A stretch of 64,000 bases of DNA, from the NCBI GenBank assembly GCA_964471165.1, contig CAYYEX010000001.1, positions 129,037 through 193,036 on the forward strand. Direction: 5' to 3'. The notes beneath the pieces were generated by a model. The model did not search any database, had not been told where the DNA came from, and saw only the letters and a program-made list of their open reading frames with translations. Within the stretch, counting starts at the first letter, position 1; each line of letters begins with the position of its first letter. Source of the stretch: an uncultured Candidatus Saccharibacteria bacterium (GTDB taxonomy: Bacteria; Patescibacteriota; Minisyncoccia; Phycocordibacterales; UBA2100). A program made the translations under genes and the position numbers. Positions 4,389-63,252 of this stretch are shown one piece after another.

Positions 4389-4445
4389 GAAATCCCCCAT
4401 TTTTTAGCTGTATATGAAGGCCGGGCGCGGTATACTTGCCCTACA

Positions 4446-9989: not shown

Positions 9990-10065
9990 ATTTTAGGTGC
10001 GTTACTTCGATGCCTTATATTCTGGCCATTATAACATTTCGATTCATGAAGCCCCGGTGAGCCGT

Positions 10066-10431: not shown

Positions 10432-11057
10432 GCGGCAGCAATCCTCGCCAAATAGTCTTTTCCATGCCCCACGTCAGTATTTATCGGAATGTTGCGCTTA
10501 CACAAATCACAATCTGCCTCCGACCACTGGTCGAGTTCTACCGTGAGCATCGACATAAATTCCGGAGGATTCCCTGCCATTTCCCGTGTCACTGCACCGC
10601 GGTTACACACGGCAACTGCAGCAGCCACAGTGGCGCCTTCTGCGCGAGCAACTTCGATTACCTTGCGCAGTGAACCACCGGTGGTTACGAGGTCTTCGAC
10701 AACAAGAATGTTTTTTCCTTTGATGAGTTCGTTGTACCCGCGTTTGATTACAAACCCATCACCATCTTTGTCTGAATATACGCTGTACACTTCCCTGCCT
10801 TCAAGCTCCGACAAGTGATATGCAACCCACTGGGACAAAATAATCCCGCCTGTTGCGGGACCGACAACGACTTCAATATTTTTGCCAACGAAACGCTGTG
10901 CAATTTCTCGACAAAGTTTCGACATCTCGCGCGTATACGGATACATCGCGTTCTTGTTCACATATGTATCCAAGTGCAGCCCCGAAACGCCGACAAAGTG
11001 ACCCGAGCGGAATGCGCCGACTTTTTGTAAAATATCGAGTACGTCTGATTCATTCAT
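10428..11057 (-). CDS. pyrE: orotate phosphoribosyltransferase
   Basis: start at internal ATG (MNESDVLDIL) of ORF 10428..11342; PRPP-binding VVEDLVTTGGS motif. Confidence 0.85.
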   Translation of the reverse strand: MNESDVLDILQKVGAFRSGHFVGVSGLHLDTYVNKNAMYPYTREMSKLCREIAQRFVGKNIEVVVGPATGGIILSQWVAYHLSELEGREVYSVYSDKDGDGFVIKRGYNELIKGKNILVVEDLVTTGGSLRKVIEVARAEGATVAAAVAVCNRGAVTREMAGNPPEFMSMLTVELDQWSEADCDLCKRNIPINTDVGHGKDYLARIAAA

Positions 11058-11163
11058 GTTAGTTTTTCTTAGCAAATACTTTTGTTTAGAAAATCTTACA
11101 CCCGCTCCAAGTTTCTGCATAACAGAAACCTGAGTAGGGTCAGGTCCTCGTAATTCGCGCGGC

Positions 11164-47100: not shown

Positions 47101-47149
47101 AGTTCAAGGTGGCGTAGTACTTTGCGAACTGCTGGTTGGAGTTCTGCAT
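44135..47149 (-). CDS. UvrD/PcrA-family helicase fused to C-terminal PD-(D/E)XK nuclease with Cys cluster (AddA/RecB-like single-chain helicase-nuclease)
   Basis: start at ATG 47149 (MQNSNQQF); Walker A AGPGTGKTH, helicase motifs, C-terminal DYKTGK...CKKDDCRECA. Confidence 0.85.
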   Translation of the reverse strand: MQNSNQQFAKYYATLNSAQKKAVDTIEGPVMVVAGPGTGKTHILTLRIANILTKTDTPPDGVLALTFTEAGVDAMKQRLLKMIGPTAYKVGIYTFHGFCNDVIHSHPEYFPRIISSVALTDIESILYIREALTELPLEKLKPFGDPYFYVQSVKSAISTLKREHKTPHDVLTGTEMRLEKLANDPDSVHQKGAHKGKIKGPVVTEIDRLKKEHELGLVYEWYETKLAAMRKFDFDDMISEVVRALEVDESFRLAVQEKYLYILADEHQDANGSQNKLLELLTSFHDSPNLFIVGDEKQAIFRFQGASLDSFSYFQKHFPKATLIALVDSYRSGSVLLDAAHSLMRESIPEERHPKLKSKLEEPSHAVLEQRAFTSEEMEINWVVAAVAEHIGRGVAPGDIAIMYRTNADARSISRALSLRGILHALDSKSTIFHDHTITQLVTYLRLCMHIGSDEFLAHALHFPWSGVSSHDTYKILLFGQKHRIPYVDVIASRAHLKDARVYDTAAVTSFAESLLRLAKIAHEESARDFFDRVLHESGFLSYVLKRTDAVSVLNAVRGLAQTLETLSSTKTLYTGQDFVNDIGLYEEYGIEIEPDTQPKERSNAVHLVTAHRSKGLEYEYVFIVHARDAHWGNRQARNNLPLSTLATVQDTDVEDERRLFYVALTRAKQYVSVSYGVASATRSRESTITQFMLEVDPQLVQIIDTEAFEATVAPQDAFAIMPLRSDSMTDKEFLRDAFLEQGISATALNNYLECPWKYFYRSLVRVPEKQTQSSMYGNALHNALRLFRELSASTHTYQPLPVLLELLKTSIDRQGFAPALYEDAHKKGIRALTDWHERNERGYEFTAMCEKKFEVYLPLEANVIPQVLLRGLVDVIEFSGDGTTRVIDYKTGKHKSRNEIEGGTKNADGNYKRQLDFYCILLELSQMQRPDKLSLEFIEPNPAGKTVVHDFEYDEAAVAELKRTIARVAGEIYSLSFWDAGCKKDDCRECALRALTEVTPISS

Positions 47150-47166
47150 AAGAGCGCCAGTATATC

Positions 47167-47210
47167 CCCGAGTTACACCGGGGTCACGCCCGGCAAGGCA
47201 TTGCCGAGGC
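47167..47210 (+). repeat. dispersed REP/MITE-like element, short form (copy b)
   Basis: ccccgagttacaccggggtcacgcccggcaaggcattgccgaggc. Confidence 0.6.
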
Positions 47211-47247
47211 AAGACAAAGCCGCGCCTGCGGTTTGTTTTGTTGGCCG

Positions 47248-47772
47248 ATGCAAGATAGCATCAGCCGTGTGAAAGCGTTTTCCGGCAGAATATTCAAAAT
47301 CGGCATCAATCCATGCCTCGTTCCCCCAGAGTCCGTCATGGAGGCGCTGTTTCAAGACGCGGGTAAACGCTCGGGAGCTATCCCCGTGTGCGGCACCCTC
47401 GAGGGCGCGCCCTACGTGCAAACACTCGTAAAGTTCTCTGGTAAATGGCGCTTCTATATCAACGGTCCCATGCTGAAAGCTTCGGGACTCCAAAACGGAG
47501 ATATGGCGCACGTTGCAATCGAATACGATGCTCGCTCGCGCACGGTGCCTCTTGGTGTGCAGCTCAAGGAAGCCTTGGCAAAAGACAAAGCCGCAAAAAA
47601 AGCATACGACGCACTTGCCCCACACCGCCAAAAAGAAATCAACCGCTATTTAACCGGTCTCAAGACCGAAGCGACATTGCAGCGAAACATTGTGGTCGTA
47701 GTCGACTCGCTTGCGGGCCGCGGCACCACCGGGCTCCATGCGCTCCTGCGCGTTGCGCGCACCGACGACTAG
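47248..47772 (+). CDS. DUF1905/YdeI-like protein
   Basis: start at MQDSISRVKAF; N-terminal DUF1905-like beta region (IFKIGINPCLVPP) and C-terminal YdeI-like helical region. Confidence 0.55.
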   Translation: MQDSISRVKAFSGRIFKIGINPCLVPPESVMEALFQDAGKRSGAIPVCGTLEGAPYVQTLVKFSGKWRFYINGPMLKASGLQNGDMAHVAIEYDARSRTVPLGVQLKEALAKDKAAKKAYDALAPHRQKEINRYLTGLKTEATLQRNIVVVVDSLAGRGTTGLHALLRVARTDD

Positions 47773-47861
47773 TCTGTCCACAGACGCGGCCATTTTTCGC
47801 AACAATATATCGTTTAGGATAAGAAACGGTCCGACGGACCATCCATCAATAACAAAAAGGA

Positions 47862-48086
47862 GTGTATTCCGTAATGTTATCGGCAATAAAAAAGCCTACG
47901 CCTTCCCTCTCGTTTCTCTTCTACCAAACCCTCATCGACTTCTCGTCATCACGATGGCTCCCTGTGTCGTTGCGTATTCATTGGGGAGTGTCGTTCACGC
48001 TCTCGTTCTTTGCGGGGGTGGCACTCATTCTCTGGGTGCTTTTGGGACTGAAGAAGAAACTGCAGGAAAGAAAGGCGTCCGTCTGA
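47862..48086 (+). CDS. small membrane protein
   Basis: 74 aa; AAGGAG RBS 9 nt upstream; 2 TM; followed by terminator. Confidence 0.45.
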   Translation: MYSVMLSAIKKPTPSLSFLFYQTLIDFSSSRWLPVSLRIHWGVSFTLSFFAGVALILWVLLGLKKKLQERKASV

Positions 48087-48100
48087 GCTCTTGATTACTC

Positions 48101-48145
48101 GGTCGCCCCTCGCCATTCACTTGAGGGGCGACCGTTTTGCTTTTG
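48101..48145. terminator. bidirectional intrinsic terminator
   Basis: GGTCGCCCCTC-11 nt-GAGGGGCGACC plus T-run. Confidence 0.65.
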
Positions 48146-48149
48146 AACA

Positions 48150-48569
48150 TTATCGTCGTCCCATAAAGTAGCCGAGAAACGCTGTAATTGAGACAATTAT
48201 GATCACAGCCAGGTAGGATTTTAAATCAGTGAGCGCCTCCAACCAATCCGGAGTCATAAGAAATAGTGAATATATGAATCCGAGCAGTGCACCTGACGCG
48301 AGCCCCGAAGGATGTTCTGGTCGCGAGGCACGCGCAAAGTAAAAAGAAGTGAGTCCGTACCAGATACACAGTATTCCGAGGAATAACCACGTGGAAAAGA
48401 AAACTCCAACATCGACACTGATACTCATTCGGACGACATCAGAAGAAAGTGCATAGGAGATACCAGAGAAAAGCATGATGACTTTCAATAAAAGCCATGT
48501 GCTCGCAAAAAGCAGTGCTCCCGCGATGAGCCCGCGTTTGTATTCAAACCCTTTGAGGGTCTCAATCAT
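48150..48569 (-). CDS. hypothetical membrane protein (4 TM)
   Basis: 139-aa hydrophobic ORF. Confidence 0.4.
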   Translation of the reverse strand: MIETLKGFEYKRGLIAGALLFASTWLLLKVIMLFSGISYALSSDVVRMSISVDVGVFFSTWLFLGILCIWYGLTSFYFARASRPEHPSGLASGALLGFIYSLFLMTPDWLEALTDLKSYLAVIIIVSITAFLGYFMGRR

Positions 48570-48651
48570 ATGTAGTGATTATGACATGGGCCGATTTGCA
48601 TTTGAGGCTTGCAACTGTAATATCTCGTGAGTCGACTTCGGAGAACGCTCC

Positions 48652-49068
48652 ATGTATGAAGCCATGTATCTTGCCTTGTTGTTCGTCGCGGCCTGCGGCG
48701 CCGGCATGTTCGTACAAGCAGTGGTCGAAGAAGGCCATTTTCGATCTGCGATCGTGATCTACGCGATACTACTCATATTCCTTGCCTCTCAGATCTCGCC
48801 GCTCGTCGTCGAGATATTCGAATGGTTGGGGATTATGCAGTCATTCAGTTCGCCCGTGCGCAGGTTCTTCGGCAGTATCCTCGCAAGCGTACCGATCTTG
48901 CTGATCGTTGTAGGTGCAATGATCCTATCTGCCACGCCGACGGATCTCATCGACCCACGTTCACGTGCAGAGATTGCGCGAGCGCGACGGAAGGACTTAC
49001 TCGCGCAGAAGCCTCGCCGAGGCACCTATCGAAGACGGAATCACTTCGTCGAACATACCAATCGGTAG
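48652..49068 (+). CDS. hypothetical membrane protein (3-4 TM) with basic C-terminus
   Basis: 138-aa ORF, terminator downstream. Confidence 0.4.
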   Translation: MYEAMYLALLFVAACGAGMFVQAVVEEGHFRSAIVIYAILLIFLASQISPLVVEIFEWLGIMQSFSSPVRRFFGSILASVPILLIVVGAMILSATPTDLIDPRSRAEIARARRKDLLAQKPRRGTYRRRNHFVEHTNR

Positions 49069-49092
49069 CGCCATACAACATAGTGAACATCT

Positions 49093-49124
49093 CGGCTGGA
49101 CTTGCTCCAGCCGTTTGTTTTTTA
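49093..49124 (+). terminator. intrinsic terminator
   Basis: CGGCTGGA-CTTGC-TCCAGCCG plus T-run. Confidence 0.7.
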
Positions 49125-49241
49125 CATGGAGGGATGTGCTTACCTCGTAATTTGACAAGCGTTCCAAAGACACGCATTGTCTTGGCAGCATCCAAATCAG
49201 GCATGCTCTATCGATAACCCCGACCTGAAAGGAGCTCACCT

Positions 49242-49853
49242 ATGGGCGAGCAACCGAGCGACGAAGACCGCGTGCGTGCGTTGTTGCAGCACGAGATGAA
49301 GATGTCTGCTCCCAACGAGATGCAGCTTTCCGAAGCAATCGCCGACCTTATCATTGGCAACCCGGCAAGTGCGCACGACTTGTTGCTGTTGATTGAAAGC
49401 TACATCGATCGCAGTTTCACCGTCTATACATGGCGGTTCATGCCCGCGGTTCTGATTGGCTTACTCAGCGCTGCAATCTGGTGCGAAAAGAACTCGAAAA
49501 CGTATAACTGCGAGTTCGCCGCCGCACTGCCCGTGACACTCGGGACACTTCTGCGTCGCTACATCGATCGTGCTCCAAACCAGCCCGACAAGACGCACGA
49601 CCTATGCGGCGAGGGGGCCATCGGCAGGTTCAGCGACTTGCTCACGCTGTATACCTCGACCGGCAACCCGGATGAGAACACGCGGCGCATCGCGTTCATG
49701 CTCGGACGTGCAGCGAAATACGGGTCGCATGTTCCCGATTGCACTGCGCCGATTGTCAGTGTAGTGGCGCAGCGCGCACTCACCTTCCTGTGCGCCGGTG
49801 CGCAGATTCGCGCGGTTAACGCTCAGCTCAACGCAGAGCGCATCATTCCGTGA
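49242..49853 (+). CDS. hypothetical soluble protein (first gene of cassette-like array)
   Basis: 203 aa; TTGACA-like box and AAGGAG RBS upstream. Confidence 0.45.
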   Translation: MGEQPSDEDRVRALLQHEMKMSAPNEMQLSEAIADLIIGNPASAHDLLLLIESYIDRSFTVYTWRFMPAVLIGLLSAAIWCEKNSKTYNCEFAAALPVTLGTLLRRYIDRAPNQPDKTHDLCGEGAIGRFSDLLTLYTSTGNPDENTRRIAFMLGRAAKYGSHVPDCTAPIVSVVAQRALTFLCAGAQIRAVNAQLNAERIIP

Positions 49854-49864
49854 GCGAAACAGGC

Positions 49865-50014
49865 ATGCTGCTCGATACAGCCCAGCTATACTTCGCCGGA
49901 TTCGGCAACGCCGAGACAGAAGTGATCTTTAAATCCGCAGCCATTACGGCGATAATCTGCGCGATTCTCAGTGCGGCAGCCGTCCTCTACATTTTCAGGA
50001 AGAGGAAAAAGTAG
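49865..50014 (+). CDS. small TM peptide (49 aa)
   Basis: below the ORF-track cutoff; 11 nt after upstream stop; hydrophobic helix plus KRKK tail; followed by array terminator hairpin. Confidence 0.3.
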   Translation: MLLDTAQLYFAGFGNAETEVIFKSAAITAIICAILSAAAVLYIFRKRKK

Positions 50015-50029
50015 TGCGCGACAGGCTAA

Positions 50030-50055
50030 GGCCGGCATCCAGCGAGGTGCCGGCC
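50030..50055 (+). repeat. array terminator-hairpin module GGCCGGCATCCAGCGAGGTGCCGGCC (copy 1)
   Basis: 8-bp GC stem, 10-nt loop, directly after a stop codon; identical copies at 52205 and 55269. Confidence 0.7.
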
Positions 50056-50170
50056 TGATTTGATGCCTCGGCCCCAAGAATATCTGGGGTCGCAGCCCGG
50101 GAAAGCATTCCCGAGGCGCGTCAATGCAAAGCAGGGCTGAATCCCGGCGACAGCTCGGGAAATTCTCACT
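50056..50170 (-). repeat. dispersed REP/MITE-like element, long form, inverted orientation (copy c)
   Basis: tgatttgatgcctcgg...cagggctgaatcccggcg; reverse complement aligns with copy f at 63178. Confidence 0.55.
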
Positions 50171-50176
50171 CTCCCC

Positions 50177-50192
50177 CTATTCGCGCGAATTA
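50177..50192. promoter_or_regulatory. perfect 16-bp palindrome CTATTCGCGCGAATAG (ATTCGCGCGAAT box 1), overlapping stop codon of 50177..50983
   Basis: seen directly; identical 24-nt context ctattcgcgcgaattagagaatag recurs at 55909. Confidence 0.5.
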
Positions 50193-50983
50193 GAGAATAG
50201 CTTGCGCAGCGCAGGCTCATGCATGACCGCGTGACTGTGACCAAAAATTATAAAAATATTGTCGTGAGTGTGTAGCTCCCGAGCAATATCCTCTACCGCA
50301 AAACAATCACGTATATGCGAAGTAACGCGCCCGACTCTATTCAATGCGGTTTCAGTAATATCTGCGCGTGGGATTGGGTCGACGTATTCGCTCACCATTT
50401 CATCGCTCTCCACGTCAACAGGGTGTCCCACAATCGCTTCTCCAATACGCAGTGCATTCTCATATGAATAGTCGTATCCCCGCCACTCGGTGCTGCGTTT
50501 AAATCTATCGAGAAATGGCTGCGCGTATTCACGAAAGCTATCACCGTTCCCTCGGCGATAGTACTGCGGTAGTACGCGAAAAAGCTCGTATGCAAATATC
50601 TCGTCTGGGGTATACCCTTTTGCAATCAGTTGTTCGTGAACAAACTCGTCACTCGGCTCCGGTGAATTGCACTCGATACCTTTTTCGAGTGCAAGCCGCA
50701 CGGCGAATAATGGTTCGCCTCCTTGCTCTATTGTTTCGCTCTCCGACATTTCGCTCAGCCACACGTGGAACGACTCACGCCGCTCGCGCAACTTTTCTAC
50801 TCCCTCGACGAGCACGAGGTCCGGAGCTGCCTTTTCAAGCGTGCTGCGTATCTGTGCAAACAGAGTATTGTTTGGGTCGCTTACGTGGTCAGAGCCAAAA
50901 TACGTGATTTTCTTTCCGTTGCGTGTGAGTTCAAAAATGTATGGCGATTCATGTCGGATACCGCTGTATTCCTGTGCGTTCAT
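50177..50983 (-). CDS. hypothetical protein (weak TraB/GumN-like N-terminal pattern)
   Basis: start at ATG 50983 (MNAQEYSG); ITYFGSDHV resembles the GxxH box of TraB/GumN family, not reliable. Confidence 0.4.
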   Translation of the reverse strand: MNAQEYSGIRHESPYIFELTRNGKKITYFGSDHVSDPNNTLFAQIRSTLEKAAPDLVLVEGVEKLRERRESFHVWLSEMSESETIEQGGEPLFAVRLALEKGIECNSPEPSDEFVHEQLIAKGYTPDEIFAYELFRVLPQYYRRGNGDSFREYAQPFLDRFKRSTEWRGYDYSYENALRIGEAIVGHPVDVESDEMVSEYVDPIPRADITETALNRVGRVTSHIRDCFAVEDIARELHTHDNIFIIFGHSHAVMHEPALRKLFSNSRE

Positions 50984-51090
50984 AACGTTGTCACCGAGCT
51001 GGGGCGCTTTATGCTCGGGCTGACGCAATACTCTTTTGTCTGGCGAGTCTATTCCCACAACAGGATTATAGCCCCCAGATTTGTTTGTGC

Positions 51091-51123
51091 TGGCATATCC
51101 AGATTTTCAGGCGTAGCATATGG
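51091..51123 (+). promoter_or_regulatory. array promoter-like box (P-box copy 1)
   Basis: tggcatatccagattttcaggcgtagcat; same box upstream of four other array genes. Confidence 0.5.
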
Positions 51124-51150
51124 TTTGGAATTCTCAGTGGAGCGAAAGAA

Positions 51151-51354
51151 ATGGCACAGCCACGCACATTCAACGTCTTCTCACGCAACGTGTGGATTAT
51201 CGCCGGCGGCGGCGTCGGAGGCGGAGTAATTGGTTGGGCGCTTTCCTCATACTACGGAGTGCCAAACATCGACCACGGGCCGTTCACGGCTCTGGGCATG
51301 ATCATTGCGAGTGTCCTTACGGCACTTTTGGTGTTCCGACGCAAGCGCTCCTGA
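51151..51354 (+). CDS. small 2-TM membrane protein (67 aa)
   Basis: GGAG RBS; Gly-rich helix AGGGVGGGVIGWAL; terminator downstream. Confidence 0.45.
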   Translation: MAQPRTFNVFSRNVWIIAGGGVGGGVIGWALSSYYGVPNIDHGPFTALGMIIASVLTALLVFRRKRS

Positions 51355-51357
51355 CGA

Positions 51358-51377
51358 ACGAGCAAGCTCGTTTTCCT
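51358..51377 (+). terminator. intrinsic terminator
   Basis: AACGAGC-AA-GCTCGTT plus TTTT. Confidence 0.55.
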
Positions 51378-51448
51378 ACGGCCGGAATCGCGAGATTCCG
51401 GCACCTTCGTTTTATACATCTGGGTCTTGTTTCGCTCCCGCGTGTATT

Positions 51449-51478
51449 TCAACTCCAGCAATTAATCCAATTGGATTA
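51449..51478 (+). repeat. partial copy of ~100-nt array repeat (R100) containing ATCCAATTGGAT
   Basis: tcaactccagcaattaatccaattggatta vs tcaactccagtaatccatccaattggatga in full copies. Confidence 0.5.
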
Positions 51479-51692
51479 TTTATAGGAGTGACTCCTTGGA
51501 TGCGGATTTCGATTCTCTCGCCAACTCGTACGTATCTCTAAAAGGTTAAACCTTGGAGCACTTTATTGACCCACGCGTATCCGTGACGCAGTATTCACAA
51601 GTTCGGGCTGGATGCTTGAACGAGTGTATCTACCTAGCTACGCGGGATGCGTAGCGGATACTGTGCGGCGGGATGCCGCAAGGAGGTACGTA

Positions 51693-52181
51693 ATGAAAGC
51701 CAAAGCCAAGGCCCAAGGATTTCGGGCTGCATTCCCTTGGATTGATCAACTCTTTCCCGGGGAGAACTACAACTTCGCGACCGCGTCGGTTGATGCCGAC
51801 ATTCTCGATCGTGTGCCCAGCTTCAACTATCCTGAGCTCACGAAGAACCGCATCACCCTGGTCAGTCGGCACGGAACGCTGATGACCGACGTTGCGGGCG
51901 TGAGTGGAATTGTCTCTGCACTCACGATCAACTTCGGTGGCTTCTGCCGGCAGAAGGAGGAGTTGGTCAGCGAAGCACTCGAACGGCTCGGCGATGCGGT
52001 GTCGGACGTTGGATTCATCGTGGTAATCACCCCGCGGGGTCGCCACAAACAGACGAACTTCACCATCTACCACACGCGCGAGAACACCTCTATCGCAGAG
52101 GTTTGGCGGCGCTTGGCGGCAAAAGAAGAGGCGGACGTCCGCAAACAAATACAAGCGGAGATGGAGCCACTTGCGGCCTAA
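51693..52181 (+). CDS. hypothetical protein
   Basis: start at ATG with AAGGAGG RBS (MKAKAKAQGF); followed by array terminator hairpin. Confidence 0.5.
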   Translation: MKAKAKAQGFRAAFPWIDQLFPGENYNFATASVDADILDRVPSFNYPELTKNRITLVSRHGTLMTDVAGVSGIVSALTINFGGFCRQKEELVSEALERLGDAVSDVGFIVVITPRGRHKQTNFTIYHTRENTSIAEVWRRLAAKEEADVRKQIQAEMEPLAA

Positions 52182-52204
52182 CACGGCCCCACATGTTCAT
52201 TCGA

Positions 52205-52230
52205 GGCCGGCATCCAGCGAGGTGCCGGCC
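52205..52230 (+). repeat. array terminator-hairpin module (copy 2)
   Basis: GGCCGGCATCCAGCGAGGTGCCGGCC then GATTCGTTTTG. Confidence 0.7.
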
Positions 52231-52330
52231 GATTCGTTTTGGACGTATCACTCTCTGATATATATCAACTCCAGTAATCCATCCAATTGGATGAACCACA
52301 GCAGTAGGCTATCTCGAGGATAGTTAATTT
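52231..52330 (+). repeat. ~100-nt array repeat R100 (copy A) with 12-bp palindrome ATCCAATTGGAT
   Basis: about 90% identical over ~100 nt to 55295..55392. Confidence 0.65.
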
Positions 52331-52400
52331 TTGATATCAGAGAAGAGGGCGACGATGCGATCTTTGAGAATGCCGCGAACTATTTCGGGCTTGAATTTAT
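52322..52400 (-). pseudogene. 3'-terminal fragment (about 20 codons plus stop) of a second CDA-fold deaminase paralog
   Basis: 52328-52400 about 90% identical to 53291-53370 (3' end of the full deaminase gene); encodes ...FKPEIVRGILKDRIVALFSDIKN* vs ...FNPEIVRGILKDRIVALFADIKK*; similarity ends abruptly upstream. Confidence 0.55.
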
Positions 52401-52462
52401 ATTCAAAGGCCCGACCTTAGAATATATGTAGAGTTGCAAATTAGGACACGTTTCTGTAGTGT

Positions 52463-53233
52463 ATGCAACAGCTGAATGGAAATGTGGAAGGACTCACCGT
52501 GTCCCAGCAACAATACGACTCTTTCGCAAGCAACTATGCAAAAGCCGCCGCCGGCAACGGCGTGAACGATTACTGCAACTACCCGAGCCTGTATGCCGCA
52601 GCTGGAGATTTCGTGGGCAAGAAAGTGCTCGATCTCGCCACAGGGAACGGCAAAGTTGCTCGCGCAGTCGTTGAACTGGGCGCTGCAGAAGTGATCGCGG
52701 TTGACGAGTCGCAGAAGATGATCGATATCGCACGGGCGCAAACTCCGTCGAGCTCGCCGATACGGTACTACACGGAAACCGTGGGCAAACTTGGACACAT
52801 GGACAAGTTCGACGTCGTCATCGCCGGCTGGCTCCTGCACTACGCGAAAAGCGAAGTGTCGCTGCGCGCAATGTGCCACGACATCATGCTCAATTTGAAA
52901 CCGGGCGGCGTTTTCGCGGCAATTAATCCGAATCCGATGAACCCGTTCGGAGGCACTCGTACGCTCGGCACCATGGTGAGCCCACGGCGAGTCCCCTGCG
53001 ACAACGGCGGCGAGATGATCATTACCCTCTACGGCGAGACCACGCAAACGTTCTCGGCGTATCACTGGGAGATGGAAACCTACAAGAAAGCGTTCCGTCT
53101 CAGCGGTCTCGATCTGGAGGTAATTCAGCCGCAGCCAACGGCGCTCGGACTCCAGCGGCTCGGTCCGCTGTTCTGGGACGAAGCGCGCCGGCATCGCATC
53201 ACCTCGATCTTTCGTGCCCGCCGCAGATCGTAA
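52463..53233 (+). CDS. class I SAM-dependent methyltransferase
   Basis: 256 aa; motif I VLDLATGNG, acidic motif II AVDES, motif III-like DVVIAGW. Confidence 0.8.
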   Translation: MQQLNGNVEGLTVSQQQYDSFASNYAKAAAGNGVNDYCNYPSLYAAAGDFVGKKVLDLATGNGKVARAVVELGAAEVIAVDESQKMIDIARAQTPSSSPIRYYTETVGKLGHMDKFDVVIAGWLLHYAKSEVSLRAMCHDIMLNLKPGGVFAAINPNPMNPFGGTRTLGTMVSPRRVPCDNGGEMIITLYGETTQTFSAYHWEMETYKKAFRLSGLDLEVIQPQPTALGLQRLGPLFWDEARRHRITSIFRARRRS

Positions 53234-53258
53234 TGCTGCGCCGAAGGTAATAGCAAGA

Positions 53259-53292
53259 AGGCCGGAGTTCCTCCATGGAACCCGGCTTTTAC
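53259..53292. terminator. bidirectional terminator between convergent methyltransferase and deaminase
   Basis: GCCGGAGTTCC-TCCA-TGGAACCCGGC plus TTTT. Confidence 0.6.
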
Positions 53293-53738
53293 TTTTTGAT
53301 ATCAGCAAAGAGAGCGACGATGCGGTCTTTGAGAATGCCGCGAACAATCTCGGGATTGAATCCGGAATCCTCTGCGAGGTGTTCGATTCGAAATTGTCTT
53401 TCGCGGAGCAAGTCCGGTAAATCACTGCGTGATGCACCGATTACCACTCGCGGAATCTTTGCTTGGAAAATTGCTGCCGCGCACATGAGGCACGGTTCGT
53501 TGGAGCAGTAGATTACACAGTCACTCAGATTATTTGTGCCGAGCACTTTGCAGGCATCGTTTACCGAATGGAGCTCCGCATGAGCAAGCACCGTCTTTTC
53601 TTTTGACTCGCGGCAACGATTTTGCGCAATCACCTCATCCCCGCGAACTATCACAGCCCCAAACGGCCACTCGCCGTCAGCCTTGGCCTCCACGGCCTGC
53701 GCGATGGCCATTTCCATGTATTTTTCGTCCATATCCAT
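53289..53738 (-). CDS. CMP/dCMP-type (CDA-fold) zinc deaminase, TadA/guanine-deaminase-like
   Basis: 149 aa; zinc motifs HAELH and SNEPCLMCAAAI. Confidence 0.8.
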   Translation of the reverse strand: MDMDEKYMEMAIAQAVEAKADGEWPFGAVIVRGDEVIAQNRCRESKEKTVLAHAELHSVNDACKVLGTNNLSDCVIYCSNEPCLMCAAAIFQAKIPRVVIGASRSDLPDLLRERQFRIEHLAEDSGFNPEIVRGILKDRIVALFADIKK

Positions 53739-53763
53739 ATGAGTATTCTAACTCACATCCCCC

Positions 53764-53792
53764 TAGCGAATCTCAATTTTCGGGCGTAGGAT
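53764..53792 (+). promoter_or_regulatory. array promoter-like box (P-box copy 2)
   Basis: tagcgaatctcaattttcgggcgtaggat. Confidence 0.5.
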
Positions 53793-53846
53793 TTGTGCGG
53801 GACCGTGCCCGCCCCGGACACACAACAACTCAGATGGAGCTTGCCC

Positions 53847-54053
53847 ATGAGAACCGGTTTCGCAGTGCTTCTCACTGCTGCGCTCTCGATTGCCCTCGCA
53901 CTCGCTCTTCAGCAGACGATTCTGTTTGCCGAGGCAGAGCTCGGAAAACAATGGGCAATGCCCGCGATGCTGGTTGTCGGCATCCCGGCGAGCTACCCGA
54001 TTCACCTGTTCCTCGAATGGGCGTCGCGATTCTCAGCTCCGCGGCTTGCATGA
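53847..54053 (+). CDS. small 2-TM membrane protein (68 aa)
   Basis: internal ATG with GGAG RBS (MRTGFAVLLTAAL). Confidence 0.45.
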   Translation: MRTGFAVLLTAALSIALALALQQTILFAEAELGKQWAMPAMLVVGIPASYPIHLFLEWASRFSAPRLA

Positions 54054-54084
54054 GCTAGGCCAGAAATGGCATCAGATTTTTCCC

Positions 54085-54110
54085 GGCCGGCATCCAGCGA
54101 GATGCCGGCC
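54085..54110 (+). repeat. array terminator-hairpin module (copy 3, GGCCGGCATCCAGCGAGATGCCGGCC)
   Basis: one loop substitution relative to copies 1, 2 and 4. Confidence 0.7.
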
Positions 54111-54203
54111 TTATTGCATACCCTAGCCTTTCGAAACAATACGGAGTAACCTTTTTGCAGGGAATGTTTGGAAGTCACACGTCCACAGCGGGAGCGAACC
54201 AAC

Positions 54204-54548
54204 ATGGAAGCAGCCTTATCACGCGAAGCAATGATCGGTGAGATCGCCGGATTCTATGGAACCAAATTGGGGCCAGCTGTAGCTCAACGGCTCGCAGATT
54301 TGCCCGACGATCGGGTTTCCAATGCGCACGCACTGATGCAGCGACGTCGCAAGGCGCATGACATGATTGCCGCGTGCATGGCGGCCTACGCCCTGTTCGC
54401 CGACGTGCTCGAAGAGCACTACATGGGACAGAGCATTGCGATTAGCGCGATGACTGGCGAATTCCGCATAGGCTACACCGACGCAGAACTCGCCGCGTGG
54501 AAACTGCCCGAGGGCGACGGCGTGTTCATGATCAAAATCGGACAATAG
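54204..54548 (+). CDS. hypothetical protein (114 aa)
   Basis: internal ATG with GGGAG RBS (MEAALSREAMIGE); degenerate P-box-like sequence upstream (54121..54150). Confidence 0.45.
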   Translation: MEAALSREAMIGEIAGFYGTKLGPAVAQRLADLPDDRVSNAHALMQRRRKAHDMIAACMAAYALFADVLEEHYMGQSIAISAMTGEFRIGYTDAELAAWKLPEGDGVFMIKIGQ

Positions 54549-54573
54549 CCAATTTCGGCGGGAGTACTCACCA

Positions 54574-54750
54574 ATGCCCCACGATGTTATTCGACCCGAC
54601 TGGTCGTATTGGCAATGGCCACCGACCAAAGCGGATTGGGACAAGCTGCGCAGACAAGAGGCCGAGTACCAGGCTCGGCGCGCCGTCGACCCGCTCAAGG
54701 GCGGTCCAATCGAGCAGTTCCTTGCATGGCTCCTCTGTGTGCCATAGCTG
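54574..54750 (+). CDS. small Trp-rich protein (58 aa), possibly coupled to upstream gene
   Basis: below ORF-track cutoff; GGGAG RBS; 25 nt after upstream stop; followed by variant terminator hairpin. Confidence 0.3.
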
Positions 54751-54761
54751 ACCGACATTCA

Positions 54762-54787
54762 GGCCGGGTCCCCCGTTGGACCCGGCC
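54762..54787 (+). repeat. variant array terminator hairpin GGCCGGGTCCCCCGTTGGACCCGGCC
   Basis: 10-bp GC stem; followed by same gatttgatgcctcggc flank as copy 1. Confidence 0.6.
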
Positions 54788-54826
54788 GATTTGATGCCTC
54801 GGCTATGCCTAGCCGGGCTGAATCCC
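54788..54826 (-). repeat. dispersed REP/MITE-like element, short form, inverted orientation (copy d)
   Basis: gatttgatgcctcggctatgcctagccgggctgaatccc; reverse complement of copy e core. Confidence 0.55.
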
Positions 54827-54851
54827 TTTAGTGACGTTTACCCACTATTCG

Positions 54852-54869
54852 CCCATTCGCGCGAATGGG
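54852..54869. promoter_or_regulatory. perfect 18-bp palindrome CCCATTCGCGCGAATGGG (ATTCGCGCGAAT box 2)
   Basis: seen directly; identical copy at 55984. Confidence 0.5.
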
Positions 54870-54877
54870 TCCAATAG

Positions 54878-54906
54878 TGGCGAATCTCTATTTTCAGGCG
54901 TAGGAT
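54878..54906 (+). promoter_or_regulatory. array promoter-like box (P-box copy 3)
   Basis: tggcgaatctctattttcaggcgtaggat. Confidence 0.5.
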
Positions 54907-54930
54907 GGCCGCGGCTTAGGGAGGAACACG

Positions 54931-55242
54931 ATGAATATCAAAGCTGTCTTACTCGCATCGCAGAAGACATTGATCGCAGTTGAACGCCACTACCCCGGTA
55001 TCGAACCGCGCCAGTGGCCGAAGGGACGCCCTGCAAACCTCGAGTGTGACCGTGACCTGTTGGTCGCCGACGCGGTTTGGACGCTGCACAGGATTCCCGC
55101 CATGATCGATGCGAAAGATTCTGACAAGGCTATGCATTCGCTCGGCACCTGTCAGGCAGTTTTGTGGCTCATGAGTGTCATCGAACAATCGGAGCTTGAG
55201 TCGATCAATCGCACGGCCGTCGCGGAATCCGCGGCAGCGTAA
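54931..55242 (+). CDS. hypothetical soluble protein (103 aa)
   Basis: GGGAGG RBS; followed by array terminator hairpin. Confidence 0.45.
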   Translation: MNIKAVLLASQKTLIAVERHYPGIEPRQWPKGRPANLECDRDLLVADAVWTLHRIPAMIDAKDSDKAMHSLGTCQAVLWLMSVIEQSELESINRTAVAESAAA

Positions 55243-55268
55243 CGGAGACCTCTATGTTCACTGATCGA

Positions 55269-55294
55269 GGCCGGCATCCAGCGAGGTGCCGGCC
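55269..55294 (+). repeat. array terminator-hairpin module (copy 4)
   Basis: GGCCGGCATCCAGCGAGGTGCCGGCC then GATTCGTTTTG. Confidence 0.7.
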
Positions 55295-55392
55295 GATTCG
55301 TTTTGTATTTTGTGTCTATCATTCTCTGATATATCAACTCCAGTAATCCATCCAATTGGATGAGTTACAGCAGTGAACTATCTGGAGAATAT
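55295..55392 (+). repeat. ~100-nt array repeat R100 (copy B) with ATCCAATTGGAT
   Basis: aligns with 52231..52330. Confidence 0.65.
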
Positions 55393-55419
55393 TTTTAATT
55401 CCTCGGCTTTTTTGTTCAC

Positions 55420-55448
55420 TAGCGAATACTTGTTTTCGAGCGTAGGAT
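55420..55448 (+). promoter_or_regulatory. array promoter-like box (P-box copy 4)
   Basis: tagcgaatacttgttttcgagcgtaggat. Confidence 0.5.
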
Positions 55449-55487
55449 TTGTGCGGGAATGAACGGCAACAACGGAAGGATTCCGCC

Positions 55488-55871
55488 ATGAACGTCGAGA
55501 CGATGATTATGTTTGTGTGCTTCGCTGCGATAGCGCTCGGTATCACGGTGGGCGGATATCGCACGGCAACGGTTACCCGCGCGCGAATCGATGCCATCAA
55601 AGCCAACGCGGTAATCACTGCGCTGATGGCGGCGCTCATGTGGTGGTACTGGAGCCCCGAAATCAACGAGCTCGCGTTCGGCTTCCGCAACAACTTCCTC
55701 GGCTACACGAGCGCCTTCGTGCTGTGCATGCTGACCATTCCGTTGCCCGTTTTCTTTATCGCGGCAGCAATTGCTCGTTTCAGCGCGTGGGCCGAGTCTG
55801 ACCAAGCCAAGGCAAATCGAAAAGCTGGGCAGCGGCGGTTCTTCGCGGAGCCCTCCCCAATTCCGCGTTAA
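55488..55871 (+). CDS. polytopic small membrane protein (127 aa, 3-4 TM)
   Basis: internal ATG with GGAAGGA RBS (MNVETMIMFV). Confidence 0.5.
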   Translation: MNVETMIMFVCFAAIALGITVGGYRTATVTRARIDAIKANAVITALMAALMWWYWSPEINELAFGFRNNFLGYTSAFVLCMLTIPLPVFFIAAAIARFSAWAESDQAKANRKAGQRRFFAEPSPIPR

Positions 55872-55908
55872 CCTCTGAGCGCGTCGCGCCATCACTCAGA
55901 CCCATTCG

Positions 55909-55924
55909 CCTATTCGCGCGAATT
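55909..55924. promoter_or_regulatory. perfect 16-bp palindrome CTATTCGCGCGAATAG (ATTCGCGCGAAT box 3)
   Basis: identical to 50177..50192 including aattagagaatag tail. Confidence 0.5.
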
Positions 55925-55937
55925 AGAGAATAGCCCC

Positions 55938-55963
55938 GGCCGGCATCCAGCGCGATGCCGGCC
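55938..55963 (+). repeat. array terminator-hairpin module (copy 5, GGCCGGCATCCAGCGCGATGCCGGCC)
   Basis: two loop substitutions. Confidence 0.65.
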
Positions 55964-55983
55964 TGATTTAATACTCACTATTC

Positions 55984-56001
55984 ACCCATTCGCGCGAATG
56001 G
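55984..56001. promoter_or_regulatory. perfect 18-bp palindrome CCCATTCGCGCGAATGGG (ATTCGCGCGAAT box 4)
   Basis: identical to 54852..54869 with shared actattc(g/a) left flank. Confidence 0.5.
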
Positions 56002-56346
56002 GTCCAGAGAGACTATTCGCCTATTCGCGTGCGACCAATGTTTCTTAGCGGTACTCCGCTTTAGAAACATGAAGTACTCTTGTGGTGAATTAGAGAATAG
56101 TTGAATACACACAAGGTGTGCGGTCGCACAGGTTGTGTGTATGTGTCACTTCAAGGTTCGACCTTGAAGTAGGTCTGGTGCGGGCCCCACACCGCCGCGC
56201 AAATCGTTCTTTCCGCGCAGGCCACCTGCAACCGTCCGGGCAATCGCCCGGACTTCTGCTTTATGTCCCCATTTTCTTTCTCTAACGAATGTCTTCCGCA
56301 CAAGGTCCGACCTTGTCATCGCTTGGACTGCGTCCTGATCTAATAC

Positions 56347-56397
56347 CTCCCGAGATACTCCGGGATTCAGCCCGGCTAGGCATAGCCGAGGCATCAC
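56347..56397 (+). repeat. dispersed REP/MITE-like element, short form (copy e)
   Basis: cctcccgagatactccgggattcagcccggctaggcatagccgaggcatca. Confidence 0.6.
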
Positions 56398-56426
56398 TAG
56401 CGAATCTACATTTTCGGGCGTAGCAT
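56398..56426 (+). promoter_or_regulatory. array promoter-like box (P-box copy 5)
   Basis: tagcgaatctacattttcgggcgtagcat, 8 nt before the ATG. Confidence 0.5.
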
Positions 56427-56434
56427 CAGGCTGT

Positions 56435-57421
56435 ATGTACGTGATAGTTGACACAAACATAATTCACAAGGATTACTATTTGTCATCAAAAAAATTCGTT
56501 GCACTATTTGAATACCTAAGAAAAACTCCCCACAAATTGATTATTCCTCAGATCGTTGAGAATGAACTAACGGAACATTTTAGACGTGATGTGGTTAGTT
56601 TACGTGAACTGCAAGGTTCGTTCATTCACGACACAGACAAGCTATTGAAGACAGCGATATCACGCAAAGATATCGATGAAGACGCCGAGTTAAAGAAATA
56701 TATAAAGTTTCTCGAAAAGTTCTACGAAAACAACCCAGTAGAACGAGCACTGCACAATTCGGATTTCTTTCTTGAAATTGTTGAGCGTGCAGTGCGTCGG
56801 CGTGCGCCGTTCGTCAAAGGCGAAAAACCTGACTATGGATTTAAAGATGCAGTACTTTGGCACCATGTTAGAGAAATTGCGCATAAAGGCCACGAGGCGT
56901 TGGCCTTTATTAGTGCCAACACATCTCAATTTGCAAATGCTTCTAAAGACGACTTAAATCCTGAACTCAGAGCAGAGTTGTCCCGCTCCAACACTACATT
57001 TAAATACTTCACAACACTTGAATCTTTTCTGGAGAAGTATGGAGCCCCATTACAAGGTATTACCCACGAGGCCGTTAAAAAAGCACTCGACTTGAAGGCC
57101 CTGGAAATGAAAGAAACAGGCGCATTCAAGGAGGAATTCCTCAAAGAGATATTTGAGTACGCGCTATACAAATCGGTGCAACAAATAGAGTTTGAGAGAC
57201 TCGAATTAAGCAATTTCTTCGTTTCAGCAATGGACAAGAAGTCATACTTCCTTGAAGCAGTGGGTAGCGCATTCGCATGGGTTCTTATATGGGATCCCAC
57301 AACCGAGCCGTACCCTGATGAACTCCGTACAACATTTAAAGCCACCTTGAGGTTTGATCGGAAAACATCCGAACTCGTTGCGGACTCAATATCGATCGAC
57401 AAGTACGATATCCCATTTTAG
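56435..57421 (+). CDS. PIN-like (DUF4935-type) domain protein, AT-rich relative to surroundings
   Basis: 328 aa; N-terminal MYVIVDTNII...(D-x-N PIN start) with extended helical C-terminal region; codon usage visibly A/T-rich. Confidence 0.55.
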   Translation: MYVIVDTNIIHKDYYLSSKKFVALFEYLRKTPHKLIIPQIVENELTEHFRRDVVSLRELQGSFIHDTDKLLKTAISRKDIDEDAELKKYIKFLEKFYENNPVERALHNSDFFLEIVERAVRRRAPFVKGEKPDYGFKDAVLWHHVREIAHKGHEALAFISANTSQFANASKDDLNPELRAELSRSNTTFKYFTTLESFLEKYGAPLQGITHEAVKKALDLKALEMKETGAFKEEFLKEIFEYALYKSVQQIEFERLELSNFFVSAMDKKSYFLEAVGSAFAWVLIWDPTTEPYPDELRTTFKATLRFDRKTSELVADSISIDKYDIPF

Positions 57422-57600
57422 ACAAGTGTTCTTGCCTACATCAAAAAAGTATTCTGAGTCTTTGCAAAACATGAGACTCTTCCGTCTTTTTTTGATAAAA
57501 TCAAGCAATATGACGATTGTTTCAAGGACATCGTTGACATCGATCTCGTCCGCAATGCTCGCCGTGCAAATTTTTGTCGCTTCTGCATTGACCGCGTGTT

Positions 57601-57642
57601 CATTAGCCTGTACGCTGGGACTTCCCAGCGTACAGGCTAATG
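57601..57642. repeat. perfect 19-20-bp inverted repeat CATTAGCCTGTACGCTGGGA...TCCCAGCGTACAGGCTAATG
   Basis: seen directly; 4-nt loop; immediately upstream of an intrinsic terminator. Confidence 0.7.
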
Positions 57643-57651
57643 AAGTGAGTA

Positions 57652-57686
57652 AATAACAAAACCGTGCTTCTTGCGCGGTTTTTTGG
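57652..57686 (+). terminator. intrinsic terminator after PIN-like gene
   Basis: AACCGTGC-TTCTT-GCGCGGTT plus TTTTTT. Confidence 0.65.
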
Positions 57687-57811
57687 ACTGAGATATTTGG
57701 ATGCAGTTCTAGGCGCGGGCGAGGCGGGTTCCGAGCCGTACTGAATGTACGGTGAGGAGCACGGCGACGCACGCAACAACGAAATGCGCCAAATAGTTCA
57801 GTCCATCATAT

Positions 57812-57846
57812 TAAGAAAAAGTCCCCTTCCGGGGACCTTTTCTTAA
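57812..57846 (-). terminator. rpoD terminator (bidirectional)
   Basis: AAAAAGTCCCC-TTCC-GGGGACTTTTT. Confidence 0.75.
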
Positions 57847-59159
57847 TATGATCGGAGCTGTTTTGCTCGTTCGTGGAATCGGATTCGTTCGAGAGCTTTG
57901 GCCTCAATCTGGCGAATACGTTCGCGGGTTACGCCGAACTCTCGGCCCACCTCTTCGAGTGTGTAGCAGATGCCGTCGTCTGTGAGCCCGTTTCGCATTT
58001 CGAGGATTTTGCGCTCCTTTGGTGAGAGCTCGTCGAGAATGCCCATCATCTGCTCGGAGAGGATTCGGCGCGATGCGTCCTGGTCTGGAGCGGCGATTGT
58101 GTCGTCGGCGATGAACGAGCCCAATGTTGAGCGCTCGTCGTCATCTTCACCCACTGGAGATTCGAGTGATACGGTGTCCTGGTTGATTTTCTGAATGGTG
58201 TAAATTTTGTCGACTTCAATGCCCATTTCTGCGGCAATTTCTTCTGGCAGTGGGTCGCGGCCCAAGTGTTGCGAGAGTTCGCGCACCTTCTGCTTGTACT
58301 TGGCGATGGTTTCCACCATGTGCACCGGAATACGAATCGTTCGAGACTGGTCGGCGAGTGCGCGGGTGATAGCCTGGCGAATCCACCAAGTAGCGTATGT
58401 AGAAAACTTAAAGCCCTTGGAGTAGTCGAACTTGTCTACGGCCTTAAAGAGGCCGAGGTTCCCTTCCTGAATCAGGTCGAGGAGGGTCAAATCTGGAGAG
58501 CGGTTTACGTATTTCTTGGCGATAGATACCACCAAGCGGAGGTTGGAGCGTGCCAAAATCGAGCGAGCTTCGTCGTCGCCCACGAGAATGCGCTTTGCGA
58601 GGTCTTTCTCCTGTTCACCGTTGAGCAGTGGGTACTGACCGATTTCTCGGAGGTACATCTGCACAGAGTCGTAGTTGGAATCAGAGCGGCGGTTCTGGAG
58701 CTTCTTGGAAGCGAGCACAGAATCTGCCGAAGTGTCTTCGAGCATGCCGCCGCCTTCGAGCACATCGATGCCGGCCGTCGAAAATCGCTCATACATTTCT
58801 TCGAGCAACGTCATGTTGTCTTCGATTGTTGGGAACTCGCGCAAAATCTCGTCAAACGTTACGTAGCCGCGCTCTTTCCCGAGCCCAATGAGCGCCTGCA
58901 CCTTGTCGGCAGACTTTCCTTTCATTTCAAACTTGGCGCCGGCGAGCACCTGCTTTTTTACCTTGCCGCCCTTAATTTCAACCTTCTGCATTGGCTGTTG
59001 CTTGGCAGGAGTGCGGCCCGCGCGCGAAGTGGCGCTGGTGCGGCGTGGTTTTGCAGGCGAGCGTTTGACCGCCGTCTTTTTGGTCTTCGTTGCGCCAGCG
59101 GCACGATTTTGCTTGCCTGCCTTCTTCACTTTCTTTGCAACTTTTTTTGCTTTTGCCAT
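57843..59159 (-). CDS. rpoD: RNA polymerase sigma-70 factor RpoD with Lys/Ala-rich N-terminal tail
   Basis: regions 1.2-4 present ([44 protein letters not shown]). Confidence 0.95.
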
Positions 59160-63177: not shown

Positions 63178-63252
63178 AATCCCTAAAGGGATTCAGCCCG
63201 GCTTGCATTGACGCGCCTCGGCGATGCTTCGCCGGGCTGCGATCCCTGTGGG
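63178..63252 (+). repeat. dispersed REP/MITE-like element, long form (copy f), internally inverted-repeated
   Basis: gggattcagcccggc...ttgcattgacgcgcctcgg...gccgggctgcgatccc; reverse complement of copy c shares ttgcattgacgcgcctcgg. Confidence 0.55.

Follow-up and report, generated by a model that had tools for sequence, protein, structure and literature searches.

What role is played by a short sequence that recurs in similar form in front of small genes that are otherwise unrelated? The question is raised by a 64-kb stretch of DNA (the whole of which is hereafter called the window), which is chromosomal DNA of a Patescibacteria bacterium labelled as Saccharibacteria; in it, a box of about 29 nucleotides (nt) stands before five genes within an array of small, mostly co-oriented genes located between an addA-like gene and rpoD. 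The answer favored here, to which a probability of roughly 0.7 is given on the strength of sequence comparison, is that the box is a bacterial core promoter reused before single small accessory genes, and that the genes behind it have been swapped over evolutionary time.

A repeated box before unrelated genes

Five copies of the box, designated P1 to P5, are present on the plus strand at 51091-51119 (TGGCATATCCAGATTTTCAGGCGTAGCAT), 53764-53792 (TAGCGAATCTCAATTTTCGGGCGTAGGAT), 54878-54906, 55420-55448, and 56398-56426. In the window, the full 29-nt consensus with at most three mismatches retrieves 3 sites against 0.00 expected, and the 17-nt core ATTTTCRRGCGTAGSAT with at most two mismatches matches all five copies (core sites starting at 51103, 53776, 54890, 55432, and 56410) against 0.09 expected; a repeat finder recovered the family independently (family D2). 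A hidden Markov model built from the five window copies and run with nhmmer returns, for instance, E values of 2.6e-07 for P1 and 8.3e-09 for P2, and neither this model nor the core scan detects an extra copy in the remaining ~58 kb of the window. Taken alone, the box extends over 26–40 nt, with 68–96% identity between copies.

The genes behind the boxes, each putatively driven by the copy in front of it, encode a 67-amino-acid (aa) membrane protein (P1; 51151-51354, plus strand, with the Shine-Dalgarno motif GTGGAG), a 68-aa membrane protein (P2; 53847-54053, plus), a 103-aa protein (P3; 54931-55242, plus, Shine-Dalgarno motif GGGAGG), a 127-aa membrane protein (P4; 55488-55871, plus), and a 328-aa protein in which Pfam recognizes a PIN_12 domain (P5; 56435-57421, plus). 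Between box end and start codon lie 31, 54, 24, 39, and 8 nt, respectively, and BLASTP of the five proteins among themselves gave no similarity. For the last gene, the open reading frame (ORF) that begins 8 nt after the P5 hexamer is preferred to the one starting at the gene caller's downstream TTG, because residue 3 of the former is where the Pfam alignment to PIN_12 starts.

A first-pass annotation of this DNA had listed these five copies 9–55 nt upstream of the start codons of otherwise unrelated genes. Its coordinates are reproduced by the consensus, core, and repeat-finder searches, its distances are right to within one base (8–54 nt as measured), and the lack of relationship among the genes is borne out by BLASTP; likewise, a hexamer pair of the kind that it described is present, TAGCGA and TAGGAT separated by 17 nt, and the motif search that it proposed, run within the window, yields box matches only at the five array copies. 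The degenerate sixth copy that it placed at 54121 (54121-54150, plus strand) fares less well. Its position right behind the terminator hairpin 54085-54110 and the junction ATACC/CTAGC, which is also found at true copies in the relatives L009 and L012, speak for it, but it is identical at only 16 of 30 positions and is not reported by nhmmer at E ≤ 10; it is plausibly a decayed copy that is statistically not demonstrable.

The comparison with other genomes covered, besides the window, ~20-kb slices of eight relatives (L007, L008, L009, L012, L018, L019, L023, and L024), with taxon labels taken from the records of metagenome-assembled genomes (MAGs). Full-length or nearly full-length array copies are found by nhmmer in L009 (about 8), L008 (2), L012 (2), L007 (1), and L023 (1), all of which are intergenic and on the strand of the array genes, and none is found in the slice of L019. 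An exact-pattern scan of the genome collection with GCNNATNNNNRTTTTCRRGCGTAGSAT yields a single true relative (L003), besides two matches that are apparently due to chance, and the same scan of the JGI metagenomes and IMG/VR yields only chance matches in the coding DNA of one phage; based on these scans, the box appears to belong to a narrow lineage and not to be carried by phages. The closest named relative, L003/L010, is a MAG labelled Candidatus Saccharibacteria, and some more distant RpoD matches are labelled as other Patescibacteria.

Evidence for a probable core promoter

When 16 copies are aligned, the information content peaks at CTgGCGAAT (positions -37 to -29), TTTT (-22 to -19), and G.GTAGgAT (-15 to -7), and falls to about zero in both flanks, which argues that the repeated unit is a core promoter alone. 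With respect to a sigma-70-type -10 element, T-12, A-11, and T-7 are present in the TAGGAT or TAGCAT hexamer of all five window copies, and all of these copies lie on the gene strand at distances fitting a transcript start. Upstream, two -35 readings are available: CTGGCG, for which the spacer is 18 nt and 4 of 6 positions agree with the local TTGACG, and TRGCGA, for which the spacer is 17 nt and 3 of 6 positions agree.

Further evidence is derived from the hexamer itself. TAG[GC]AT occurs at most 90 nt upstream of 41 of the 94 array genes at seven loci, and its distance from the ATG is bimodal, with 12 cases at 6–9 nt and the remainder at 19–54 nt. At the shorter distance a ribosome-binding site would not fit, so that a leaderless mRNA is implied, and the longer class carries a Shine-Dalgarno-like motif in all but four cases. 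In 54.7 kb of arrays, the hexamer is counted 52 times on the gene strand as opposed to 8 times on the other strand, and 108.6 kb of non-array DNA contains 15, both strands summed. Taken together, the hexamer-to-ATG distances and the gene-strand orientation form the signature of a -10 element. Moreover, boxes either follow a terminator or a palindromic module or stand back to back with a leaderless promoter that reads the opposite way: P1 adjoins the divergent promoter of the minus-strand gene 50177-51058 (TATAAT, 6 nt, GTG), and P2 adjoins that of a tadA-like deaminase gene (TAGAAT, 6 nt, ATG). The orientation, the position behind terminators, the bimodal distance, and the conservation profile thus lend good support to the promoter idea of the first-pass annotation.

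In the proposed mechanism, the box would constitute a sigma-70-type core promoter module reaching from about -37 to about -7. The putative -10 element is TAGGAT or TAGCAT with GCG immediately upstream, and the -35-like element would be either CTRGCG with the 18-nt spacer or TRGCGA with the 17-nt spacer, the spacer holding the conserved T-tract. RNA polymerase would start ~6–8 nt past the hexamer, with predicted starts near 51126, 53799, 54913, 55455, and 56433, which would yield one leaderless mRNA (that of the PIN_12 gene) and four mRNAs with 5' leaders of ~16–47 nt bearing a Shine-Dalgarno-like motif. Many small accessory genes appear to be insulated transcription units, each with its own promoter and with a conserved terminator hairpin behind. 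The box as a structured RNA, i.e., a riboswitch or a leader, was considered and rejected, since Rfam gives no match in the array (47000-57500) at the gathering threshold or at E ≤ 1, and the box folds no better than shuffled sequence (minimum free energy -5.8 kcal/mol, z +0.62).

Several points weigh against reading the box as a reused core promoter. A promoter scan with the E. coli consensus does not call the box, the promoters of this lineage being different from those of E. coli, and the -35 match is weak, at 3–4 of 6 positions. The block CTRGCGAAT, which has GCGAAT in common with a palindromic module of the array (D, described below), could be a regulator site, core promoters being without a -35 consensus. 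The hexamer TAG[GC]AT is ~14-fold denser per strand in the arrays than elsewhere, a density that could reflect a separate promoter class. In addition, the high identity of the intergenic modules between species, presented below, could be explained by recent interspecies exchange instead of purifying selection, and the restriction of the box to the array is established only over the visible 64 kb.

The most serious of the alternatives is that the array forms a regulon apart from the housekeeping genes, co-regulated by an alternative sigma factor of its own or by an activator or repressor specific to the box, with CTRGCGAAT as the recognition element of that factor. In its favor, array promoters carry TAGGAT or TAGCAT as opposed to the TATACT of core genes, TAGSAT is strongly enriched in arrays, CTRGCGAAT is conserved as well as the -10 element even though core promoters are without any -35 consensus, GCGAAT recurs as a half-site in the D palindrome ATTCGCGCGAAT, and one related array, that of L019, contains two tandem genes for extracytoplasmic function (ECF) sigma factors (10043-10531 and 10644-11132, 162 aa each). 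The details, however, do not fit the known classes. ECF sigma promoters have a -35 'AAC' and a -10 'CGT' with ~16–17 nt between them; in the box, the spacing from GCGAAT to CGTAG (GAAT to CGTA) is about 13 nt, and the ECF-encoding genome, L019, has no box, so that an ECF promoter was rejected. Sigma-54 promoters present GG at -24 and GC at -12 (TGGCAC-N5-TTGC); three window copies read CTAGCG and lack the required GG, no TTGC lies at the required distance, and a sigma-54 promoter was likewise rejected. No second sigma factor is found by Pfam among 40 of the window's larger ORFs, and a 162-aa array protein tested as a divergent ECF sigma factor showed no similarity.

Core genes of the window (ftsA, addA, and others) have GG-TATACT 6–10 nt before the ATG and no -35 consensus, and they share with the box a G at -13 together with T-12, A-11, and T-7. 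In the cluster of small genes that separates rpoC from dnaG, promoters consist of TTGACG/C, 16 nt, and then TAGGCT, TAGTCT, or TACTGT; the pairing of TTGACG/C with TAGGCT and TAGTCT indicates that TAG..T hexamers work with a canonical -35 in these same genomes. A dedicated sigma factor, which the first-pass annotation had suggested, is therefore not supported by the shared bases, by the neighboring promoters, or by the ECF and sigma-54 spacings. It is not needed to explain the box, and the regulon as a whole is regarded as rather unlikely; the primary sigma factor RpoD probably reads the box. As a separate observation, GG-TATACT without a Shine-Dalgarno motif is seen at many core genes, e.g., at 4431, 15667 (minus strand), 16150 (minus), 18179, 27060 (minus), 33651, and 47164 (minus). 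Given the 6–10 nt between GG-TATACT and the ATG at core genes, leaderless mRNAs seem to be common, and because of such starts the automatic start calls of the addA-like, OmdA-like, and PIN_12 genes look misplaced.

Conserved modules and replaced genes

The intergenic DNA of the array is assembled from a few reusable modules, T, C, D/F, E, and P, of which P is the box. The T modules are GC-rich terminator hairpins on the plus strand at 50030-50055 (GGCCGGCATCCAGCGAGGTGCCGGCC), 52205-52230 (with a T-rich tail behind the hairpin), 54085-54110, 55269-55294 (minimum free energy -21.8 kcal/mol, z -3.3), and 55938-55963. C, an imperfect palindrome of 40 nt around ATCCAATTGGAT (55335-55374, 51450-51490, and 52266-52305 in the window; 12835-12875 in L009), has a terminator on one side and the next promoter on the other; its sequence being conserved rather than compensated suggests a candidate operator for a dimeric DNA-binding protein. 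Two composite T-C blocks of the window, 52201-52294 and 55265-55363, are 87% identical over 101 nt.

The D module is a 33-nt palindromic unit with the core mentioned above (54845-54877, 50172-50200, 55902-55933, and 55978-56010), and F is its 89-nt long form at 56012-56100, with the same arms and an internal 57-nt hairpin. Units of this type are also present in L007 (11239-11328) and L009 (13399-13443 and 18015-18091); their paired arms are CTATTCGCC...GGCGAATAG with or without the 57-nt insert (z -6.3 and -4.3), and they look like miniature inverted-repeat transposable elements (MITEs). The inner part of the D arm, GGCGAAT, equals the 5' part of the box. As to folding, the T, D, and F elements reach z values of -3.3 to -6.3, unlike the box.

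The E module is a hairpin that adjoins P5 (56362-56396, plus strand) and has a perfect inverted copy at 54792-54826 (minus), with further relatives at 47180-47214 (minus), 50086-50147 (plus), and 63180-63246 (minus) of the window, at 8743-8759 of L008, and at 5514-5530 of L009. Its consensus is GGGRTYSCAGC-CCGG-NN-A-RGCA-T-NN-CCG-AGGC, with four fully compensatory NN/NN variants, and it usually lies just upstream of promoters, such as those of addA, of the first gene after rpoC, and box P5; Rfam gives no match for this hairpin family. The two E copies at 54792-54826 and 56362-56396 form a perfect 35-nt inverted repeat around 1.5 kb, in which lie two genes with a box in front and 560 nt of non-coding DNA rich in hairpins, and the repeat could permit inversion of this segment. 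The stretch before the PIN_12 gene (55872-56434; 563 nt) is non-coding and packed with hairpins (a palindrome at 56105-56142, and 56148-56172, 56234-56253, and 56300-56316), and a 104-aa ORF on its opposite strand (56146-56460), which overlaps P5, is probably spurious.

Between the window and the array of its sister species L009, the coding DNA is unalignable except for an OmdA-like gene, whereas the intergenic modules align in the same order at 76–91% identity. For instance, E-P (window 56362-56426, L009 12311-12246) is 76% identical, T-C (55289-55375, L009 12913-12835) 78%, and D-P, in which D lies directly 5' of P3 (54844-54904, L009 13420-13360), 87%; the P4 box similarly belongs to a T-C-P module kept in L009. 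For P2, the collinear positional equivalent (53761-53802, L009 13786-13745) is 81% identical, and the best-scoring pairing with an L009 box (53763-53794, L009 12807-12776) reaches 91%. Fourfold-degenerate sites of rpoD, dnaG, and rpoC are 57%, 48%, and 53% identical between the same two genomes; since the modules lie far above these values, they would be under purifying selection, or else recently exchanged.

The genes on either side of the orthologous T-C-P module are unrelated between the species, and P3 shares the first bases of its predicted transcript (TAGGATGGCCGCGGCT) with the box at 14737 in L012, with unrelated genes behind. The first array gene on the rpoD side differs in every species (328, 241, 253, 258, and 260 aa), and the box lies 6–8 nt before the ATG of that gene in the window, L009, L008, and L023. 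At this position in the window, the GC content falls from 53–54% to 42% at the PIN_12 ATG; at 57687 it returns to the earlier level, and the sequence is from there on again homologous to L009 and L007. Both interspecies homology and GC content break at most 8 nt from the 3' edge of the box. The putative promoter thus appears to have stayed at the PIN_12 position while the ORF changed. Modules that are collinear with the sister species while the intervening genes are unrelated place the box at cassette boundaries, and the comparative alignments that the first-pass annotation had called for accordingly find the breaks at the 3' edge of the box. Assemblies whose RpoD proteins are identical show no difference anywhere in the array (100% identity), from which turnover is judged to be slow on the scale of strains.

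The PIN_12 cassette itself (56435-57686), with its GC content of 42% against 53–54% in the flanks, has nearest homologues that are only 39–40% identical. One of these (L025, 39% identity) is at another locus, has a TATAAT promoter in front and no box, and is compositionally foreign in its own contig as well (GC 33% versus 49%); the idea that the PIN_12 gene travels together with the box was rejected on account of this homologue. In the AT-rich tail of the cassette, at 57599-57644, the two 22-nt arms of a perfect inverted repeat stand 2 nt apart.

A second alternative considers the box to be an outward-facing promoter at the end of a small, non-autonomous mobile element (Correia- or MITE-like), possibly related to D/F, that would have spread among the intergenic regions of the array. 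The D/F units are MITE-like and shared among species, one of them adjoins P3, GGCGAAT at the 5' end of the box is part of the inner D arm, and the 5' edge of the homology is sharp. Nevertheless, the box has neither terminal inverted repeats nor a target-site duplication, its ends CTRGCGAAT and GTAGGAT are not complementary, and its flanks are unrelated; the copies are positional orthologues in two species instead of scattered insertions, and they adjoin varied upstream modules (T, C, D, and E), which leaves no single fixed element. A mobile origin of this kind is given little credence. Least probable of all is that the box serves site-specific recombination, with a recombinase inserting and excising cassettes in the manner of integron attC/attI, as the repeated boundary sequences among small, unrelated ORFs of one orientation and the homology and GC breakpoints at the box 3' edge might suggest, because the box has no inverted-repeat arms, no predicted fold, and no GTTRRRY, lies upstream of ORFs where attC sites lie downstream, has the conservation profile of a -35, spacer, and -10, and shows no rapid shuffling among the assemblies with identical RpoD. 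Neither the Pfam scans of the 40 larger window ORFs nor the Pfam-annotated gene tables of nine related loci contain an integrase or recombinase. Of the cassette boundary or recombination site proposed by the first-pass annotation, the boundary stands as a description; site-specific recombination is not supported by symmetry, by fold, or by the Pfam scans of the 40 ORFs.

Returning to the reused core promoter, the boxes would be positional orthologues under purifying selection and the array ORFs would be replaced over time; with boxes that stay while ORFs are replaced, each box would mark the left boundary of a replaceable gene. A tentative extension, which is possible although clearly less probable than the promoter reading itself, is a cassette platform without a recombinase, in which whole ORFs would be exchanged within the collinear P/T/C/D/E scaffold by RecA-type recombination after natural DNA uptake, and the box would serve as both a ready-made promoter and a left homology anchor. 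Saccharibacteria take up DNA by natural competence and insert it through homologous recombination (PMC10633639), which makes recombination anchored on conserved modules plausible.

The array among known systems and its biological meaning

The core genes identified by Pfam in the window include ftsA/ftsZ, valS, tsaD, the addA-like gene, rpoD, dnaG, and the 3' end of an rpoC-like gene. The array interval (47213-57842) is flanked on the left by the conserved addA-like UvrD/PD-(D/E)XK helicase-nuclease gene (44135-47212, minus strand; Pfam) and on the right by the conserved rpoD, the gene of the primary sigma factor (57843-59159, minus; Pfam). In all eight relatives, the gene order is constant, i.e., rpoC, zero to seven small genes, dnaG, and rpoD, and past rpoD there follows a convergent run of small, largely co-oriented, mostly uncharacterised genes, which terminates at an addA-like or PD-(D/E)XK nuclease gene wherever the contig is long enough. 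The array comprises from 4 genes (L024, 11339-12921) to about 20 (the window), and its gene content varies widely between species; the interval between rpoD and the nuclease gene and the rpoC-dnaG gap, with its 0–7 small genes, are expandable insertion hot spots.

Searches of the array proteins with NCBIfam and PADLOC called no defence system, the only hits being a generic methyltransferase, a TadA-like deaminase, and PIN. Across the methyltransferase gene (52463-53233), a 73-nt segment of the 3' end of the tadA-like gene is present in two copies (52324-52396 and 53289-53361, 89% identical), and this duplication has the look of a scar left when the methyltransferase gene arrived by insertion or recombination.

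Among known systems, the closest likeness is to the putative mobile promoters of Matus-Garcia, Nijveen and van Passel (2012), which are defined by at least 80% identity over at least 50 nt upstream of non-paralogous genes (commentary PMC3575422). The box resembles them in being a closely similar upstream sequence before non-homologous genes, shared with related taxa and attached to no known mobile element, and differs from them in its length of 29–40 nt, which lies below the 50-nt threshold (PMC3575422); it also differs in that its copies are clustered in one array, positionally orthologous, and paired with equally conserved terminators. Correia elements, ERIC, and REPIN are small promoter-carrying repeats (PMC3575422). 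Like these, the box is a short intergenic repeat that would give unrelated genes promoters, with palindromic companions (D/F and E) nearby; unlike them, it is without inverted repeats or target duplications and is not dispersed in the DNA examined.

Actinobacterial-type sigma-70 promoters have a TANNNT -10 element (TAGRRT in Streptomyces) and leaderless mRNAs. The box similarly keeps T-12, A-11, and T-7, has a weak or variable -35, and is followed by start codons 6–9 nt past the hexamer, whereas its conserved 9-nt upstream block and spacer T-tract exceed the known needs of sigma contact. Integron cassette arrays, in particular those of sedentary chromosomal integrons, are likewise long runs of small, co-oriented, unrelated ORFs with repeated boundaries and variable content; here, however, no IntI is seen in the scanned ORFs and loci and no attC hairpin (R''/L''/L'/R') is present, many array genes seem to carry a promoter and a terminator each where an integron has one shared Pc, and the box is upstream and asymmetric. 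Phage morons are also single accessory genes with their own promoter and intrinsic terminator between conserved genes, and the atypical composition of the PIN_12 gene recalls them, but the array is chromosomal with no phage genes nearby, and its promoters and terminators appear to be a shared scaffold and not to be imported with each gene, the L025 PIN homologue having a different promoter.

On these comparisons, the box is a putative new family of reused promoters. A search of the literature found no description of Patescibacteria promoter architecture, of Saccharibacteria promoter motifs, or of hypervariable arrays. The analysis provides a testable putative consensus in which accessory genes carry (GCG)TAGGAT, core genes carry GGTATACT, and leaderless starts are frequent; it could guide the annotation of start codons and help in designing expression cassettes for the genetic systems newly available in Saccharibacteria (PMC10633639). 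If the cassette platform is true, it would represent a natural plug-and-play expression rack for the accessory genes of Patescibacteria. The array offers a clean example of regulatory DNA that would outlive the genes it drives, with modules 76–91% identical between species, synonymous sites near saturation, and ORFs replaced, and it bears on how the reduced genomes of epibionts may take up foreign genes and express them immediately.

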